UHGV virus genome: UHGV-0096558
Strand: one strand, 5' to 3'
Length of the DNA stretch: 54,457 bases
Source of the DNA: a virus
Below are positions 1,075 through 26,138 of this stretch, piece by piece (the stretch's first letter is position 1; every line of letters begins with the position of its first letter). The position numbers and the translations under genes were made by a program. The notes under the pieces are model-generated. The model ran no database searches, was not told the origin of the DNA, and was given only the letters and a program-made list of their open reading frames with translations.

Positions 1075-3417
1075 ATGGCTACCAGTGTAGGTACAATTTA
1101 TTACGAAGTTGACGCGAAAACTGGTCAACTTCTCGTTGCACAACGACAGGCAGACCAGGCCTTTGACCGTATAGAGCGCGGCGCAAAACAGGCTGACCGC
1201 CAGGTAAACACCCTGAAAACATCCATCAAGGCACTGACCAGGGTTATCCATTTGCTAATTGCTGCCGAGGCTGTGCGCCAATTTATGGATATGGCGGAGC
1301 AAGCAAAAATGCTTCGCGTAAAAATCAAAATGCTTACGGGCGATGCGGAGTCCGCCGGACGGGTTTTCGACGGCCTGAAAGCAATATCCAGGGAAACGGG
1401 GCAAAGCCTGAAGGATACTGGCGAACTATGGCAAGGCCTGGCTATCTCACTGAAGAACACGTCCGCTACGGAAGGGCAATTGCTTAACCTGGTTGGTACG
1501 ATTCAGAAAATGGGGGCGTTGGGCGGTGCGTCAGCGGAGCAGATGTCAAACTCAATGCGTCAATTCCGTCAGTCTATCGACGGAGGCGTGCTTCGTGCTG
1601 AAGAATTCAATAGCCTGTTAGAGAACACCCCGACCATCGTACAGACAATGGCCCGCCAGATGGGGTTATCTATGGGCCAATTCCGCGCAGAAATGCTGGA
1701 AGGCAAGATCACGGCTGAAAGGATGGTTAACGCAATCCAGGCGGCTACGCAGGAAACAAACGAGAAGTTTGCGCAGTTGCCGCGCACATCCGGCATGGCC
1801 CTGAATGAGCTTAAAGTCGAGGTTATGGGGCTTGTTGAGCAGTTGGATGATCTTTTCGGTGTATCCGATACGGTTGTCGCTGGTATCGATCTTGTCACGA
1901 AAGGTGTTAAGGCTTTAGGTGAAGGCGCTGATTTCGCTAAAACCTGCTTTAACACACTGAAGACGGCTGGTAGCGAATTTATTGATATATTTGAAGATGT
2001 CGGAATCAAGGCTGGCGAGGTAGCGGAGAAGATCATCGCAATGGTCACGCCAATCAAAGCACTAATGGACGCCTATAAATGGATGAAGGAGGTTGTAGGG
2101 GAACAAACAGACGAATATAACAGCAACTACGAGAAGAAATACGGTAAGACCGTTGGTAAGGTCATGCAATTACAGGATGATCTGACCGCAGCAATCCAGG
2201 CTACAGAGGAAGCAAGGAAAAATGAACAGAATGCCGCCAATGACGGAGCGATTACCGGATTCGACAAGCCAGTAGACAAACCTAAAAAACAGAAAAAAGA
2301 GAAGAAATCAGAAGCTGATCGGCTTGGTGATAAAGGTATAAGCGTTTCTGACCAGTACAACAAAGACGCCGCCGCTATGCGCAAAGCGTTAGAGAACGGC
2401 AAGGCCATTGATGCTGCATTCGCCCAGGGTAAAATCACCCTCCTTGAGTACCGCGCCGCGCAAAAAGGGATAGGCAAGGAACTGAAGGAAGAATTAGCGC
2501 AAATTCCGGTAGAGGAATTGCGTGATAAATGGGCGCAAATAGTAAGCCCGATGGATCAGCTTAAAGGCGAGGTTGACCCTATTCAGCAGGTCCAGAATGA
2601 ATGGGCAGTCCGTAAGCAAATGCTTATCGACCTGGGCGTTACGGAAGCGCAACAGAAACAGGAACTGTTAGCCTATGAGCAGCAGATCCGCGATCTAAAG
2701 TGGGAACAATGGCAGGCGCAAAGCGACACAAACAGTCTGATAGGTTCTTGTGTCAACGGCCTAAAAGGTGGCATGAGTAATGCGCTTGTTGGTCTGTTAA
2801 ACGGTACTCAATCGCTTAGCGATGTATTCGCAAACTTGGGTAGCAATATTCTTGGTTCAGTAGGGAATAAACTTGCGGAAATTGCTGGCGACTGGATAGC
2901 CGATCAGATCATGATGGAGACACAAAGCAAGGCAACGCAGGCAAGTACAACGGCTGGCGCGGTAGCGGCACAAGGCCAGATTGCAGCGGCGGCGGCCCCG
3001 GCAGCGGCGGCAACAGCGGCGTCAACTGGCGGCGCATGGGCGGCGGCTGGTTCGGCGGCACTTACTGCGATCATGTCGCTGGCGGCGTCAATTTTTGGCG
3101 GCGGGCGATTTAATGGTGGTAGCGTCATTGGTGGCAATATGTACCGCGTAGGGGAACACAACAGGCCGGAGCTATTCCAGACGTCTAACGGAAACCAATA
3201 TATGATTCCGGGCGAGAACGGCAGAGTTATCCCTGGTCGTGATATTGGCGGCGGTGGCGGTATCAGTATGCCTGTCAGTATCACCATTCAGACCACAAAC
3301 GGATTTAGCGACGAGGACAGCCGCAGACTTGAGCAAACAATGGAACGTGTAGCAATGAAAATGATAACAAGGGAATCACAAAGACCGGGCGGAATATTGC
3401 AGCCGCGCCGCAAATAA
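1075..3417 (+). CDS. tail tape measure protein, 780 aa
   Basis: Long helical protein with Ala/Gly-rich C-terminal region and a lambda H-like C-terminal motif; lies immediately upstream of M-L-K-I-J homologues. Confidence 0.75.
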   Translation: MATSVGTIYYEVDAKTGQLLVAQRQADQAFDRIERGAKQADRQVNTLKTSIKALTRVIHLLIAAEAVRQFMDMAEQAKMLRVKIKMLTGDAESAGRVFDGLKAISRETGQSLKDTGELWQGLAISLKNTSATEGQLLNLVGTIQKMGALGGASAEQMSNSMRQFRQSIDGGVLRAEEFNSLLENTPTIVQTMARQMGLSMGQFRAEMLEGKITAERMVNAIQAATQETNEKFAQLPRTSGMALNELKVEVMGLVEQLDDLFGVSDTVVAGIDLVTKGVKALGEGADFAKTCFNTLKTAGSEFIDIFEDVGIKAGEVAEKIIAMVTPIKALMDAYKWMKEVVGEQTDEYNSNYEKKYGKTVGKVMQLQDDLTAAIQATEEARKNEQNAANDGAITGFDKPVDKPKKQKKEKKSEADRLGDKGISVSDQYNKDAAAMRKALENGKAIDAAFAQGKITLLEYRAAQKGIGKELKEELAQIPVEELRDKWAQIVSPMDQLKGEVDPIQQVQNEWAVRKQMLIDLGVTEAQQKQELLAYEQQIRDLKWEQWQAQSDTNSLIGSCVNGLKGGMSNALVGLLNGTQSLSDVFANLGSNILGSVGNKLAEIAGDWIADQIMMETQSKATQASTTAGAVAAQGQIAAAAAPAAAATAASTGGAWAAAGSAALTAIMSLAASIFGGGRFNGGSVIGGNMYRVGEHNRPELFQTSNGNQYMIPGENGRVIPGRDIGGGGGISMPVSITIQTTNGFSDEDSRRLEQTMERVAMKMITRESQRPGGILQPRRK

Positions 3418-5909: not shown

Positions 5910-6614
5910 ATGCGCAATATTCCGAGAGAGATGATTATTGATTCCGTCGATGCCGGAGTCGGCGCGGTCATCGACTTATTTGAACTGGACCTGACCCCAC
6001 TTGGCGGCGAGGTTGTCCGCTTCCATTCCGGCGCTAATGGCTATTACGGGAATGTTATCTGGAAGGGTATCGCTTACAACAGCTACCCGATCGAAGTTAG
6101 CGGCTTCGAAATGAAAAACGAGGGGGTATACGCGCGGCCTCAAATGGCAGTAGCCAACATCGGCGGCCTTATTACCGGAATGAATAACGACTTTAACGAC
6201 CTTCGCGGAATGAAAGTTACCCGCCGCCAGGTGGAGGTTAAATACCTGGACGCTGTTAACTTCCCTAACGGCAATCCAGATGCAGATCCTTCTATTGAGG
6301 CGGTATCTGTTTACGTTGTCGAGGCAATGAGTGAAGAAACGGCGGAGCAAGTACAGTACGAACTATCAACGCCAGTAGACGCAGACAAGGCTGTTATACC
6401 TGGGCGCACCATCCTTGCTGACGTTTGCCAGTGGCAATATCGCGGAGACGGTTGCGGATATAGCGGCGGCCCGGTAGCGACTGATAAAGATGCGCCGACC
6501 AGTGATCCAACATTGGATAAATGCAGCCACCGCCTCAGCGGTTGTCGCTTGCGCTTCCCGCGCCCGAATCCGTTACCAATTTCATGTTTCCCCGGATCAA
6601 GCAAGGTGGGCTAA
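5910..6614 (+). CDS. L: minor tail protein L
   Basis: Recognisable similarity to lambda gpL (EIDLT..GGE, ...RRKV..R.LDAVNF.NGN..ADP..., ...W.YRGD.CGYSG..., DKCS..LSGC). Confidence 0.9.
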   Translation: MRNIPREMIIDSVDAGVGAVIDLFELDLTPLGGEVVRFHSGANGYYGNVIWKGIAYNSYPIEVSGFEMKNEGVYARPQMAVANIGGLITGMNNDFNDLRGMKVTRRQVEVKYLDAVNFPNGNPDADPSIEAVSVYVVEAMSEETAEQVQYELSTPVDADKAVIPGRTILADVCQWQYRGDGCGYSGGPVATDKDAPTSDPTLDKCSHRLSGCRLRFPRPNPLPISCFPGSSKVG

Positions 6615-15885: not shown

Positions 15886-15916
15886 GAAACGAGGCTAACG
15901 CCTCGTTTCTTTTTGC
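15886..15916 (+). terminator. rho-independent terminator (AAACGAGGC / GCCTCGTTT then T-run)
   Basis: After tail fibre gene. Confidence 0.65.
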
Positions 15917-16182
15917 GTACCATTGTGTGTACCATATTATCTTAAGGTTAAATGAGATATGAATAAAATAATGATTTATATATCGTTTTTGCCACTTTGC
16001 ATAATGTCTCTTTCTAATGCTACATACCGCGCACAAGCGTAAACATACGCAAGCAAAATCACCCCTAACACCATGAATTTAGTAGATTTACTTGTTTTCG
16101 CTGTAAACAAGCGCGCTTTTGCGTTATATTGCGTAAACCATGATTTGTGTACCAGGTTGTGCACCAAATAAGGGGGGCGATT

Positions 16183-17403
16183 ATGGCGTTATCTGACACT
16201 AAGTTAAGAAGCATCCACGGTAAAAGTTATGATGGTCCGGTCGAGATCCCGGATGGCGGCGGTCTGTCAGTAAGGGTAAGCCCGAAAGGCGTAATTACGT
16301 TTCAGTATCGCTACAGGTATGACGGGAAGCCTAAAAGAATGAAGCTAGGCAACTATGGCATAATGACGCTAAAGGAGGCCAGGCTAGCGGTAATTGAGTG
16401 CAAGGCGATATTAGCAGACGGCAAAGATCCAGGACTTGCTAAGAAGCAGCGCATTGACGAGGCGAGGGCGAGAGCAACCGTTAGCGATATCGTGAACAAC
16501 TATCTGAATAAACAGACGACCAGGGAAATTAAGGGATACAAAGAGATCAAGCAAAACTTACAAAAGCACATAATCAAGAGGTATGGCGATTTTATTGTGG
16601 ATGACATTAACGCTAGGGCGTGGGAGGCAATATTCTCAGAGATAACGAAAGCGGGCCATCCGGTACAGGCTGGCGCGATGTTGCGCCGCATGAAATCCAT
16701 TGTCGCTATGGCGCAAAGGAAAGGGATAGTAAAAGACAACGAGATCCGCTTGTTGCGAGTGGAAGACGTTGGCAAACCGCCGCGCAAGATCGACAGATAT
16801 TTATCGGGCGAGGAAGTAGGGGAATTCTGGCGTTTTACGGCTGGCGATTTTATGTCTAAGGCCAATATGACATTCTTCAGACTACTGCTATTAACAGGAT
16901 GCAGGACGGTAGAATTGAGGCTAGCAAAGCGTGAACATTTTGATCTCAATAACAGGGTATGGAATATCCCTGCGGAACTATCAAAAAACAAAAAGCGGTT
17001 TACGCGCGGCCTGTCAACGTTAAGCGTAGAGCTATTAAGCATGATGTTTGATTGCCACGGCTTCAACATAGTTTTCCCTGCGGTATTGTCGCTGGATGGT
17101 AAACCAATGGATAAAGCTGTGTGCACAAGACTAGCGACAAGGCTTAGTAATGAAATTGGATTTAAGGCGGGTTTTACTGCGCATGATTTGCGCCGGACGT
17201 GCCGCACGCATTTAGCGGCATTAGGCGTGACCGCCCAGGTAGCCGAAAAAATGTTGGGCCATACCCTGGGCGGAGTATTAGGAGTTTATGACAGATATGA
17301 TTATGTAGAAGAACAGAAAGACGCTGCGGAATTATGGGCTAATTACGTTTTATCAGTATCAGAAAGCAAGCCTACTGACTTAAAGAACTGCATTACATCT
17401 TGA
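16183..17403 (+). CDS. int: tyrosine integrase, P4/CP4-57 type
   Basis: ATG at 16183 with RBS AAGGGGGG; N-terminal arm-binding region (GGGLSVRVSPKGVITFQYRYRYDGKPKRMKLG) and C-terminal HDLRRT...H..G...Y catalytic motifs. Confidence 0.9.
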   Translation: MALSDTKLRSIHGKSYDGPVEIPDGGGLSVRVSPKGVITFQYRYRYDGKPKRMKLGNYGIMTLKEARLAVIECKAILADGKDPGLAKKQRIDEARARATVSDIVNNYLNKQTTREIKGYKEIKQNLQKHIIKRYGDFIVDDINARAWEAIFSEITKAGHPVQAGAMLRRMKSIVAMAQRKGIVKDNEIRLLRVEDVGKPPRKIDRYLSGEEVGEFWRFTAGDFMSKANMTFFRLLLLTGCRTVELRLAKREHFDLNNRVWNIPAELSKNKKRFTRGLSTLSVELLSMMFDCHGFNIVFPAVLSLDGKPMDKAVCTRLATRLSNEIGFKAGFTAHDLRRTCRTHLAALGVTAQVAEKMLGHTLGGVLGVYDRYDYVEEQKDAAELWANYVLSVSESKPTDLKNCITS

Positions 17404-17576
17404 TAACGATATACAGGGCGCGACGTAGTTGATAATTCGTGAAGCGGTTCAGGAAATGGTGTACCTGCCGCTTCCCATTTCATTTTCCATACTCTGAAAG
17501 TTGTCCTACTTATTCCGCCGAGCATTTCCCTGATCCGTGCCGTGGTCAATAATAATGTGGCTGTTTTATTCATCAC
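17343..17576 (-). CDS. AlpA/Xis-like helix-turn-helix regulator or excisionase
   Basis: ...ARIREMLGGISRTTFRVW... motif; start overlaps stop of upstream gene (ATGA); 3' end overlaps int 3' end antisense by about 60 bp. Confidence 0.55.
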   Translation of the reverse strand: MMNKTATLLLTTARIREMLGGISRTTFRVWKMKWEAAGTPFPEPLHELSTTSRPVYRYQDVMQFFKSVGLLSDTDKT

Positions 17577-18220
17577 TTATCACCAGTATATTCAACGTGC
17601 CCGATACATCCATCAATAATTGCTTGCGCCATATTGCGATAATCGCACGAAAAATCATTGTCATGGTTAAAGTCAATCTCTTTTGCTGCGTCTTCACCCA
17701 TAACATTGATAGCAAGTGCAAACGCGATTTCAGCAAGTGCTTTTTCTTTCGGATCAATGTATAAATAATAATTATAAAAACCCCATTCAATAGCATTTTC
17801 TTTCTGTATACTGCCTTTTTCTGTGTATACCCCGTATTTATCACCGATAAATTTAAACATTAAAATCCCAATGTGATAGCCATCAGGATAATAACAATCA
17901 AGCCACACGCCGCACGGAGGCTTTTCTCCTGGCTTCCATTCCGTAACTTCCGACACATCGCAATCATGGCGCTCATCTTCGATTAATTCATCAATAATTT
18001 CGCTTTCTTTATTCATGCCGTCATCATCCATTTCAGAGTAACGCACAAAGCGCCACGTATTAGCCATCAGCGTATAAGATTCACCGCCTACCTTAGATCC
18101 GGCGTAATACTCCGTCCCGAAATCGTAATAACTTGAAAACGTGGTTACTTCAAAAGGCTGAATATCACCACGGAAGCGGTGGAACATTGCGCCTATTGCA
18201 AAAGGGGTTTTCTTCGTCAT
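17573..18220 (-). CDS. hypothetical protein, 215 aa, acidic
   Basis: ORF track; translationally coupled to flanking genes. Confidence 0.6.
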   Translation of the reverse strand: MTKKTPFAIGAMFHRFRGDIQPFEVTTFSSYYDFGTEYYAGSKVGGESYTLMANTWRFVRYSEMDDDGMNKESEIIDELIEDERHDCDVSEVTEWKPGEKPPCGVWLDCYYPDGYHIGILMFKFIGDKYGVYTEKGSIQKENAIEWGFYNYYLYIDPKEKALAEIAFALAINVMGEDAAKEIDFNHDNDFSCDYRNMAQAIIDGCIGHVEYTGDK

Positions 18221-18221
18221 A

Positions 18222-18398
18222 TTACGCCACCGTTACATTGTCAACCTTAATGTAATATTCAGGGTTGTTTTCTATTTCAAATTTAAACTTAGAAAAACAT
18301 TCTCGCCATTCATGGGCTTGATTATTGAAGTAGTACACCGTATGGCGATCTATTTTGTACAAAATCCCCGTTGATCTAGCCATGTAATAACTAACCAT
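18222..18398 (-). CDS. hypothetical protein, 58 aa (MVSYYMARSTGILYKIDRHTVYYFNNQ...)
   Basis: Manual translation; start overlaps NinB stop (TAATG); ends 1 nt before next gene start. Confidence 0.45.
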   Translation of the reverse strand: MVSYYMARSTGILYKIDRHTVYYFNNQAHEWRECFSKFKFEIENNPEYYIKVDNVTVA

Positions 18399-18829
18399 TA
18401 TTGCCCCCAGCGTTTTATGAATTCCTCGTTTAATTTCGTATCACCCGACCATTGAACATCATGTTCAGCACCGAACGAGTAAATCAATTCGATTAGTTCG
18501 CTGAATTCTGATTTACTCATCCGGCTGGTAGACGTTCCCAATACAACGAAGCCGGATTTATCCAGGTTAGGGACGACGCCATATTTCTTAAGCCCGGCAG
18601 TGAATACCGCTTTCCAGTCTTCCGGCGACAGCTTCTTACCGTACCAATTAACCTGATCGCTAATGTCGGTTAACAGCGCCCAAAGCAACGCGTTTTGGCT
18701 TAGCGAGCGGGTTTTCTCCTGGATGGTAATTATCAGCGGGCTTTTGCTATCAGGCTGGATCTCTCTTATCTGCCTGATAGCGTTTTCTTTCACGGCGTCG
18801 TTGACTATCTCAAATCTAATTTGCCGCAT
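18398..18829 (-). CDS. ninB: NinB / Orf-family recombination mediator
   Basis: Similarity to lambda NinB (…EIQPDSKSPLIITIQEKTRSLSQNALLWALL…VVPNLDKSGFVVLGTSTSRMSKSEFSELIELI…). Confidence 0.85.
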   Translation of the reverse strand: MRQIRFEIVNDAVKENAIRQIREIQPDSKSPLIITIQEKTRSLSQNALLWALLTDISDQVNWYGKKLSPEDWKAVFTAGLKKYGVVPNLDKSGFVVLGTSTSRMSKSEFSELIELIYSFGAEHDVQWSGDTKLNEEFIKRWGQ

Positions 18830-22500: not shown

Positions 22501-23016
22501 TTATATGCTTCTTCTACCATGTCGAATACTTCCGGCCTGTAATAGAAAAAACTCATTACTACCATCAAATTTTACAGGGAAGTTAATTTTATAATTGCTA
22601 AAAGCCTTATGCATCGTGCTTTCTAATTCATGGATATTTTCAGTTGGCCCTTCTAACGTTTTCACGATATGCAAATCAGGAATTCTAACACCTGCTTTAT
22701 GTGCGCTTTTTAATATTTCATTTCTTCGCTCGTTCTCCTTAACGCTTACACCAATTTTCATTTGTGTAGGCACTTCCAGATCGTCAGTCATGATGTAAAG
22801 TTTACCGCGCTCATGACGAAGAAAGCCGTATTTTGCGCATTTTGGACAGCCGTCGCCGCGCTTAAGGTTGTGGGGTGTACACATCCTTTTATGGCCACAA
22901 ACTCTGCAGCGGCATAATACTTTTGTTTTGCTATTAATAATTTTCCCCAGCACTTCAACATCAGGATTAACTTTCGCAATAGCGGCAACATGTTCCTCAT
23001 GTGTTAACTTACACAT
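22501..23016 (-). CDS. T5orf172 / GIY-YIG-like domain protein with N-terminal zinc ribbon (CRCRVCGH...CPKC)
   Basis: Cys4 cluster and ...LYIMTDD...KIGVS...ENERRNEI... pattern. Confidence 0.45.
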   Translation of the reverse strand: MCKLTHEEHVAAIAKVNPDVEVLGKIINSKTKVLCRCRVCGHKRMCTPHNLKRGDGCPKCAKYGFLRHERGKLYIMTDDLEVPTQMKIGVSVKENERRNEILKSAHKAGVRIPDLHIVKTLEGPTENIHELESTMHKAFSNYKINFPVKFDGSNEFFLLQAGSIRHGRRSI

Positions 23017-24699: not shown

Positions 24700-25347
24700 A
24701 TGAAAACAAAATGGTATGACTTAGCAAAGCAGCTCATGCGAGCGCAAGGTATGAGCCAAGATTCACTCGCGGATCTCATGGGGATAACTAAAGGCGGCCT
24801 GTCACACTGGCTTAACGGTCGCCGCGAGCCAAATCTTGAAGATATTGCGCGGATTATGCGGGCGCTTGGTCGTCGGCAATTCACTGTTACACATGATGGA
24901 ATGGTCATTGATGATTCTGTTTCTAACACGTTACCGGGAGCGCCGCAGCGTGATTTAGGTAGTTACCCGGTTGTTGACTGGAAGGACACAGTAAACAATA
25001 TGGATGATACAAGGCTATCAACATTACCACACGTTACGACTAGCGTTATTTGTTCAGATGATAGTTACTGGCTGGTTGCCAAAGGTGAATCAATGAACGC
25101 GCCGCAGGGGTTGAGCATCCCGGCGGGGACGATGATACTTGTTGACCCGCACGCGCCAGCTATTGACGGCAAACTGGTTATAGCCCAGCTTGAGGAAGGG
25201 CAGATACCGACGTTTAAACAGTTGATTATTGATGGAGGTCAAAGGCTTTTACGTTCGCTCAATCCGCTGTATCCGCCAATCCCTATGAATCCAGAATCAA
25301 AAATTATAGGCGTGGTGGTTGATGCGAAGATCGTAAACCTGCCATAA
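24700..25347 (+). CDS. cI: CI-like repressor (HTH plus S24 LexA-type autopeptidase domain)
   Basis: N-terminal HTH (SQDSLADLMGITKGGLSHWLNG); C-terminal ...LVAKGESM... and ...VVVDAKIVNL; divergent from replication operon. Confidence 0.85.
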   Translation: MKTKWYDLAKQLMRAQGMSQDSLADLMGITKGGLSHWLNGRREPNLEDIARIMRALGRRQFTVTHDGMVIDDSVSNTLPGAPQRDLGSYPVVDWKDTVNNMDDTRLSTLPHVTTSVICSDDSYWLVAKGESMNAPQGLSIPAGTMILVDPHAPAIDGKLVIAQLEEGQIPTFKQLIIDGGQRLLRSLNPLYPPIPMNPESKIIGVVVDAKIVNLP

Positions 25348-25847: not shown

Positions 25848-26138
25848 ATGAGCGTTACAATTATGTATGGCAAATGTGACAGTAAACTGAATGCCAGGGA
25901 ACGCAGAAGGATAAAAAGAGAAAACGAAAGAAAATCATCACCTGCAATCAATAAAACAGACAATGTGGATAAAGCTATTCGATTTGCAAACGAGGAAAGA
26001 TGCAAACCAAATAGCATTAAAGAACGTCGCAAAGGATCAGTAAAATGGTATACGGAAAATGAAAGCGGCAGCTACTACCACGCAACGCAACCACGCCATT
26101 TAGGGGAAAAACCCCTGGATAAAGTCCGCTACCATTAA
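25848..26138 (+). CDS. basic protein with N-terminal arginine-rich motif (RERRRIKRENERK); possible N-like antiterminator
   Basis: ORF track; first gene after long leader; arginine-rich motif reminiscent of lambda N. Confidence 0.5.
   Translation: MSVTIMYGKCDSKLNARERRRIKRENERKSSPAINKTDNVDKAIRFANEERCKPNSIKERRKGSVKWYTENESGSYYHATQPRHLGEKPLDKVRYH

Follow-up and report, generated by a model that had tools for sequence, protein, structure and literature searches.

We report that the region around the integrase gene (int) of the virus genome UHGV-0096558 is probably an integration/excision module, which comprises int, putative binding repeats around the attachment site and a gene for a small helix-turn-helix (HTH) protein, a candidate excision factor. 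The genome, 54,457 nucleotides (nt) in length, was analysed as a whole and is referred to as the window. The module is of the standard KplE1/Phi24B type and resides in the recently described mEpimmI (mEp021-like) group of temperate coliphages. For this group the excision-factor candidate, the arm-type sites and the base-level core of the phage attachment site (attP) are new; the kind of system is ordinary. None of the three is part of the published description, in which "excisionase" and "attP" have zero occurrences and neither arm-type sites nor the overlap between int and the HTH gene is mentioned (PMC11893012). The features on which the argument rests are as follows (aa, amino acids; ORF, open reading frame).

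15886..15909, plus strand: intrinsic tail-fibre gene terminator with a 10-bp stem and TTTTT, bounding the attP region on the left
15914..15934, plus strand: candidate arm-type sites for the integrase in the P arm, TGCGTACCA and TGTGTACCA as direct repeats with 12-nt spacing
15959..16042, plus strand: 27-codon phage ORF spanning the core (MNKIMIYISFLPLCIMSLSNATYRAQA*), from the MFDS1019527 junctions and the K-12 attB
16007..16014, plus strand: attP core (crossover region) TCTCTTTC, from lysogen junctions and the K-12 empty site
16118..16166, plus strand: P'-arm repeats TGTGTACCA (16146) and TGTGCACCA (16158) and a degenerate pair, likely int promoter/leader
16183..17403, plus strand: int, P4-type tyrosine integrase with predicted arm and core binding, mEpimmI type III, target mppA
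17343..17403, both strands coding: tail-to-tail overlap of 61 nt, the last 19 codons and the stop of int and of the HTH gene
17343..17573, minus strand: gene closing the leftward early operon, for a basic winged-helix HTH protein of 76 aa, a candidate excision factor

The phage and its attachment site

In sequence searches the window matches the Escherichia phages MagusPhagus, mEp013, mEp021, mEp515 and mEp010, with which it shares the gene order tail fibre, int, a small minus-strand gene, a gene for approximately 215 aa, a gene for approximately 58 aa, and NinB. These matches and the common gene order identify the 54.5-kb window as a complete genome of the mEpimmI group. The group was described in 2025 with four integrase types and insertion sites mapped to ydaM, abgT and mppA; its sole type III example is the LSU61 prophage, inserted at the start of mppA (PMC11893012). 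With LSU61 the window shares the genome architecture, a near-identical int and the insertion at the start of mppA.

In three E. coli lysogens (MFDS1019527, LSU61 and GF66.2) the match on the int side begins at window position 16007, i.e., at one common breakpoint. For MFDS1019527 both junctions could be aligned: the int side adjoins mpaA and the tail side adjoins mppA, and identity to the phage runs from 16004/16007 on the int side and to 16014 on the tail side. The empty site of E. coli K-12 (attB) reads AGCAGCATT-TCTCTTTC-GTATGCTGCA and lies within codons 15-23 of mppA. Since both lysogen junctions and the K-12 attB agree, the core is TCTCTTTC at 16007-16014, and the alignments indicate that Int recombines this 8-bp sequence with the identical sequence in the signal-peptide codons of E. 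coli mppA.

Integration thus cuts mppA in its signal-peptide codons, and the phage segment puts MNKIMIYISFLPLCIMSLS in place of MKHSVSVTCCALLVSSISLS. The 27-codon ORF spanning the core provides mppA with a new start codon and signal-peptide N-terminus, giving a full-length hybrid mppA in the MFDS1019527 lysogen, where the hybrid gene is annotated as intact by PGAP. At attL of the same lysogen (locus L003, positions 2950-3200; window 16007-16183) the mppA promoter and first 19 codons face int, and, judged from this arrangement, host transcription from the mppA promoter could run across attL into the prophage int.

The integrase gene

Int carries both domains of a P4-type heterobivalent tyrosine integrase, each above its Pfam gathering score: Arm-DNA-bind_3 (PF13356, 1.8e-19, residues 3-89) and Phage_integrase (PF00589, 1.6e-17, residues 207-369). 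Near-identity to mppA-inserted prophages, together with the junctions in mppA, places it in mEpimmI type III; Int is 98.8% identical at the protein level to the integrase of the MFDS1019527 prophage, and the DNA of the int 5' region is 96-98% identical to that of three mppA-inserted prophages including LSU61 (96%). Identity to the integrases of mEp021 (type I), mEp013 (type II) and MagusPhagus is 47-49%, and alignment to the other integrase types at the DNA level persists in the arm-binding N-terminal region. The gene is oriented away from the att core. Its start is likely the ATG at 16183, because it is preceded by a Shine-Dalgarno-like AAGGGGGG and residue 3 is where the Pfam arm-binding domain starts; a GTG at 16147 was considered as the start and is disfavoured relative to this ATG.

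Probable arm-type repeats on both sides of the core

The sequence-only reading had noted a repeated TGTGTACC element upstream of int and suggested that it marks integrase arm sites or attP. The repeats do exist, with the first two copies at 15914 and 15926, slightly off the range 15911-15926 originally given. As a marker of arm sites they hold up, flanking the core and being conserved in relatives; as attP itself they were ruled out, the crossover core being another sequence, between the two repeat clusters.

Specifically, TGYGYACCA occurs exactly four times in 54 kb, always on the plus strand (15914, 15926, 16146 and 16158), as two pairs with 12-nt spacing, one approximately 80-90 bp left of the core and the other 130-150 bp right of it. 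The pair on the right stops 17 nt short of the int ATG, and a degenerate third pair is present at 16118-16143. Four or more matches were also obtained in 13 of 100 shuffled sequences, so the count is not unusual by itself; the repeats are significant because they are clustered on both sides of the att core and conserved in other phages. A tandem TGTGTACCAAAT-NGTGACCAAA is found after the tail-fibre terminator (which is kept in mEp013, mEp021 and MagusPhagus) and before the int start in mEp021 (type I), mEp013 (type II) and MagusPhagus, and both arms carry the repeats in each integrase type examined (I, II and III). Moreover, TGTGTACCAAAT-YGTGTACCAA precedes the int ATG by 22-59 nt in 17 of 19 distinct Enterobacterales prophage regions, with YGCGTACCAA as the second unit in three regions of this set; the other two regions have the most divergent integrases (approximately 40% identity) and a variant repeat. 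Because the core is flanked on both sides and the motif is conserved beside a conserved arm-binding domain, we infer that the repeats are arm-type sites bound by the N-terminal domain of Int.

In each related region a -10-like hexamer (TAGAAT, TAAAAT, TAATAT or TAAGAT) stands directly 5' of the motif. With the core at 16007-16014, the right-hand repeats at 16146-16166 and the int ATG at 16183, the window has the layout known from KplE1, and the arm-type sites would accordingly sit on the int promoter and leader. In KplE1/HK620 (IntS/TorI) the int promoter lies inside an att arm and overlaps the arm-type sites, and intS is repressed by both IntS and TorI (Panis et al. 2010, PMC2951348). The window resembles KplE1 in this presumed overlap of int promoter and arm-type sites and in having separate promoters for int and the excision-factor gene; it differs in that KplE1 integrates at a tRNA gene (argW) and the window phage inside a protein-coding gene. 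By analogy with KplE1, a promoter inside the P' arm would mean that Int probably represses its own gene. Two results for the window itself weigh against this picture: the hexamer before its repeats is the weaker CATGAT, not TAGAAT, and a consensus promoter scan of the window found no promoter in the P' arm. For these reasons autoregulation, which has been demonstrated experimentally for intS of KplE1, is for int of the window only something that we infer.

Two further sequence elements were noted near the core. A possible weak promoter, TTGCGT-16 nt-TATTAT, is located at 15913-15940 and overlaps the P-arm repeats. Repeats containing GTAAAC are present at 16039-16050, 16103-16114 and 16133-16138, between the core and the P' arm-type sites; the HTH protein or a host bending protein might bind there.

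A small gene that travels with int

The HTH protein is basic (isoelectric point, pI, 9.86) and read from an ATG. Its gene shows synonymous and nonsynonymous differences of 10:1, 14:5 and 18:2 in three independent phage pairs, corresponding to ratios of nonsynonymous to synonymous substitution rates (dN/dS) of 0.03, 0.08 and 0.02, respectively. With dN/dS of 0.06-0.12 for the upstream 58-aa gene and 0.23-0.32 for the 215-aa gene, all three small ORFs are under purifying selection and are for that reason genes, not chance ORFs.

A profile search recovered approximately 160 clusters of the HTH family at 90% identity, all from Enterobacterales, which carry only the names "helix-turn-helix domain-containing" or "hypothetical"; likewise, the mEp021 counterpart is annotated only as a "putative helix-turn-helix domain-containing protein". 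The gene is intact yet unannotated by PGAP in the MFDS1019527 prophage (locus L003, 4335-4565, minus strand), replaced by a wrong-frame 42-aa call in mEp554 (L011, 1340-1570, minus strand) and called truncated in Salmonella phage Oslo (L103, approximately 2470-2710, plus strand). We thus identify an unnamed family of small HTH proteins whose genes are frequently overlooked or wrongly called in annotation, probably as a result of the overlap with int. The absent and erroneous calls would also fit an untranslated ORF that arose by chance antisense to the 3' region of int. We consider this extremely improbable in view of the synonymous excess in three pairs and the number of clusters across Enterobacterales; in addition, just 61 of the 231 nt of the ORF lie within int, and its start codon overlaps the stop of the upstream gene.

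The identity of the HTH protein follows the integrase type, being 98.7% within type III, 93% between mEp021 and mEp554, and 96-97% among MagusPhagus, mEp013 and mEp010, and 38-57% between types. NinB, encoded 800 bp away, is 94-99% identical across the phages regardless of integrase type. At the DNA level, similarity to phages with a type II integrase begins at 17548-17610, i.e., at the 5' end of the HTH gene, and similarity to the type III prophage is unbroken from the core through int and the HTH gene. Since HTH identity tracks the integrase type and the mosaic breakpoints lie where the HTH gene starts, the two genes int and HTH are exchanged as one cassette, in the manner of an integrase with its cognate directionality factor.

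Fold and probable role of the HTH protein

The sequence-only reading had called the protein AlpA-like, which is borne out by the predicted fold and not by the sequence. With the 76-aa protein as query, Pfam gave no match to AlpA (PF05930) or HTH_17 (PF12728) even at E-values up to 10, so that it falls short of the gathering score of either family; the match in PHROGs was PHROG 4745, "DNA binding protein" (1e-8). Across Pfam, PHROGs, NCBIfam and PADLOC the family returned only PHROG 4745, generic HTH models and the Xis of Gifsy-1 below threshold. The latter model (NF033499, Xis_Gifsy_1) was matched weakly by seven of eight family members (best E-value 0.008), over its first 42 positions only, and the window protein scored 13.3 bits relative to a cut-off of 60 bits. 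A profile search of PDB sequences with the family gave nothing useful.

In the predicted structure the order of elements is strand-helix-helix-wing-helix, as in winged-helix (MerR-like) excisionases. The model matches an AlpA-family excisionase best; other excision factors come next, the matches including RdfS, Pukovnik Xis, HK022 Xis, P2 Cox and TorI. In sequence the protein is 16% identical to the GIsul2 excisionase (PDB 8c3t; AlpA/Vis family, PF05930), and it differs from AlpA/Vis excisionases by a longer loop (approximately residues 36-53, with an invariant GTPFP) between the recognition helix and the wing strand.

The gene has the genomic hallmarks of a recombination directionality factor (RDF) in being small, encoding a basic protein, lying beside int and being co-inherited with it. 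On these grounds and from the modelled fold, we consider it likely that the 76-aa gene encodes an excision factor (RDF/excisionase).

Several observations point the other way. When 21 family members were compared with Pfam, HTH_23 was matched by 16 (best E-value 6e-7), with HTH_8, HTH_29 and HTH_28 in addition; HTH_17 was touched by three (best E-value 0.035) and Phage_AlpA (PF05930) by two (best E-value 0.097). An hhalign comparison of the family profile with AlpA of E. coli K-12 aligned only the start of the recognition helix, with 3-6% probability. Moreover, 11 loci have an HTH homologue without an adjacent int, and so does a CPZ-55-like element with a 78-aa homologue (50% identity, more than 1000 contigs) at its eutA-proximal end; int is likewise not adjacent in a 71-aa subfamily from Klebsiella and in several disrupted copies. 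The CPZ-55-like element (loci L104-L107, homologue at approximately 6001-6237) also encodes a small terminase of the Sf6 type.

These data would fit a protein that is mainly a transcription factor and activates int, as AlpA does for intA in CP4-57, or represses it. Family members fit general HTH models best, some homologues are away from int, and the conserved promoter-like element with its repeats before int would be an obvious regulatory target; TorI, for example, directs excision and also represses intS (PMC2951348). We nevertheless regard a mainly transcriptional role as rather unlikely: the gene is swapped together with int as a unit, and the two overlap in 47 of 48 loci, as a cognate recombination partner should; near int there is no second excisionase candidate, and the top structural matches are excisionases. 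The two roles can also coexist, as in P4 Vis and TorI.

The closest functional precedent for an excision factor in this position is the Stx phage Phi24B, in which int has a promoter of its own and an orientation opposite to that in lambda, and the small xis gene (product approximately 8 kDa) is placed at the int 3' end and read from a repressor-controlled early operon (Fogg et al. 2011, PMC3064807). In the same paper, BLAST and Pfam did not reveal Phi24B Xis, whose link to AlpA emerged from profile-profile comparison (HHpred) alone, and the protein was validated experimentally (PMC3064807), whereas the HTH protein of the window is a candidate. The window shares with Phi24B the inverted int and the position of the small gene at its 3' end; an overlap of int and xis is not reported in the sections of the Phi24B paper that were consulted. 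A tblastn search of the phage collection with the window HTH protein matched only mEp phages, Salmonella phage Oslo and Proteus phage Pm34, with no detectable similarity to Phi24B Xis.

The leftward operon in which the HTH gene is the last gene starts beside a CI-like repressor gene, and in the mEpimmI group it has a nutL site for an N-like antiterminator (PMC11893012). By analogy with Phi24B Xis, the HTH protein would be made only after induction and would then turn Int towards excision.

The overlap between int and the HTH gene

That the AlpA-like ORF is convergent with int and overlaps its 3' end, as proposed from the sequence alone, was confirmed and is a family-wide feature. Both stop codons (int, 17401-17403; HTH gene, 17343-17345) lie inside the shared 61 nt. 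The overlap is 61 nt in mEp021 and 43 nt in mEp013, mEp010 and MagusPhagus. In IMG/VR and GTDB genomes (Citrobacter, Atlantibacter, Escherichia, Sodalis and others) 48 loci have both genes; 47 of these have the HTH homologue running towards the gene of a P4-type integrase (39-48% identical to Int of the window) and overlapping it by 25-61 nt, as computed from real ORF ends, and the sole exception (L073) has a disrupted int. In all mEpimmI types the int stop is antisense to the codons of the invariant HTH residues Tyr57-Gln58, and conservation in the Int tail is limited to the residues KNxITS, which mirror YRYQDV, a motif of the HTH protein encoded on the opposite strand. The overlap is thus old and conserved. 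Conservation does not by itself show regulation, because mutually constraining frames persist anyway.

The overlap has consequences for transcription if the leftward operon is read to its end. Since no terminator follows the HTH gene, leftward transcription after induction should run antisense through int, and we speculate that antiterminated transcripts entering int in this way may lower Int synthesis during lytic growth. In its strongest form the proposal is that the overlap is a regulatory device common to an entire family of Enterobacterales prophage modules, in which antisense transcription, by polymerase collision or processing of double-stranded RNA, would shut off new Int synthesis while the excision factor accumulates, and the phage would then be committed to excision without re-integration. 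In lambda, xis and int are co-oriented and co-transcribed, and antiterminated early transcription past the recombination genes can alter int expression post-transcriptionally (sib retroregulation). In the window the two genes converge, and any comparable effect would have to act through antisense RNA or polymerase collision; regulation by the overlap, if true, would be the convergent-gene counterpart of sib retroregulation. Moreover, the promoter-plus-repeat element and antisense transcription of int would, if confirmed, extend the KplE1 and Phi24B models of integrase control. In a literature search we found no description of a convergent, antisense overlap of int and xis.

A regulatory device of this kind is nonetheless improbable in our judgement. 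A terminator scan, Rfam and folding were used to seek a terminator or RNA element tied to the overlap, and none was found. The simpler alternative, a compact junction without regulatory function that is kept by the constraint of two reading frames and by joint inheritance, has about an even chance of being correct. It fits the variation in overlap length between clades (25-61 nt), the restriction of the overlapping part of int to a C-terminal tail in which only the residues mirroring the HTH motif are conserved, and the lack of an associated terminator, Rfam element or conserved structure. It is less easily reconciled with two facts: with convergent genes, reading the leftward operon to its end necessarily transcribes int in antisense, in a phage group that has a nutL site, and the overlap recurs across several genera in all of the 48 loci but one, in which int is disrupted.

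Two structure predictions were obtained in or beside int. A minus-strand "terminator" annotated by ARNold at the int 5' end of mEp554 was unconvincing by eye and was set aside. The only hairpin obtained, from a 9-bp inverted repeat (CCGCCCAGG ... CCTGGGCGG, 25-nt spacer) at 17231-17273, falls in the part of int coding for the C-terminal catalytic domain, approximately 70 nt past the stop of the HTH gene; it is possible on either strand, has z = -2.0 and lacks a U-run.

The leftward operon and its accessory genes

Upstream of the HTH gene the end of the leftward operon contains the following genes.

17573..18220, minus strand: gene for a 215-aa acidic protein, predicted to have two small beta-rich domains and a very acidic linker
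18222..18398, minus strand: gene for a 58-aa protein, coupled to NinB and the 215-aa gene
18398..18829, minus strand: NinB/Orf recombination mediator (Pfam NinB, 1.4e-46), upstream in the operon

The operon as a whole encodes an O-like initiator, an HNH endonuclease, an exonuclease, DnaB, a MarR/Ren-like protein, NinB and the three small genes. Translational coupling of the 58-aa, 215-aa and AlpA-like genes had been proposed, and the junctions, in which stops and starts overlap or lie 1 nt apart, are compatible with it: NinB and the 58-aa gene share TAATG (1-nt overlap), the 58-aa and 215-aa genes are joined by TAA-T-ATG (1-nt gap), and the 215-aa and HTH genes share TGATG (1-nt overlap). The 58-aa gene is kept in mEp010, mEp013, mEp554, MFDS1019527 and MagusPhagus. 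Neither the 58-aa nor the 215-aa protein gave a meaningful match in Pfam, PHROGs, NCBIfam or PADLOC. The 215-aa gene is missing from an unrelated prophage (L007) that has the same int/HTH module, and is for this reason not part of the module; the 58-aa and 215-aa genes are probably accessory genes of the early operon outside the int module.

The 215-aa protein is acidic, as had been stated, with a pI of 4.48 and 40 Asp and Glu relative to 20 Lys and Arg. Its linker DDDGMNKESEIIDELIEDERHDCD (residues 61-90) has a net charge of -11 and is almost invariant across the family, which comprises 422 clusters at 90% identity; E. coli was the source name of every one among 120 listed, and only 10 representatives were found among 1.84 billion clusters at 50% identity. 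The gene is a mosaic in which the N-terminal domain (residues 1-60) exists in at least two variants, and the match to the MFDS1019527 prophage, which is near-identical elsewhere, is lost at 18031, within the sequence that encodes this domain. The suggestion that the gene occupies a classic position for lysogenic conversion did not survive: a scan of the window found no convincing promoter or terminator flanking it, it is coupled on both sides, and it is present in all mEpimmI genomes examined. Unlike a moron, it is regularly present in an operon that begins at the repressor region.

A function in anti-defence or host takeover, e.g. as a DNA mimic through the acidic linker, is a doubtful proposal for this protein. 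The overall acidity and the charge concentrated in a 30-residue segment would suit such a role, as would the mosaic N-terminal domain, the confinement of the family to the mEpimmI group and an amino-acid turnover faster than that of its neighbours (dN/dS of 0.23-0.32 vs 0.02-0.04 for NinB). Against this, the protein has no similarity to a known family or to a fold beyond generic small beta domains, its structure model is of moderate confidence only, and the gene belongs constantly to the early operon and not to a variable cassette.

Finally, the HNH endonuclease gene was located at 22501-23016 (minus strand), between the genes for the O-like initiator and the exonuclease, and the genes for the CI-like repressor and the N-like antiterminator at 24700-25347 and 25848-26138, respectively (both plus strand). 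The replication genes are thus carried on the leftward operon, an arrangement unlike that of lambda.

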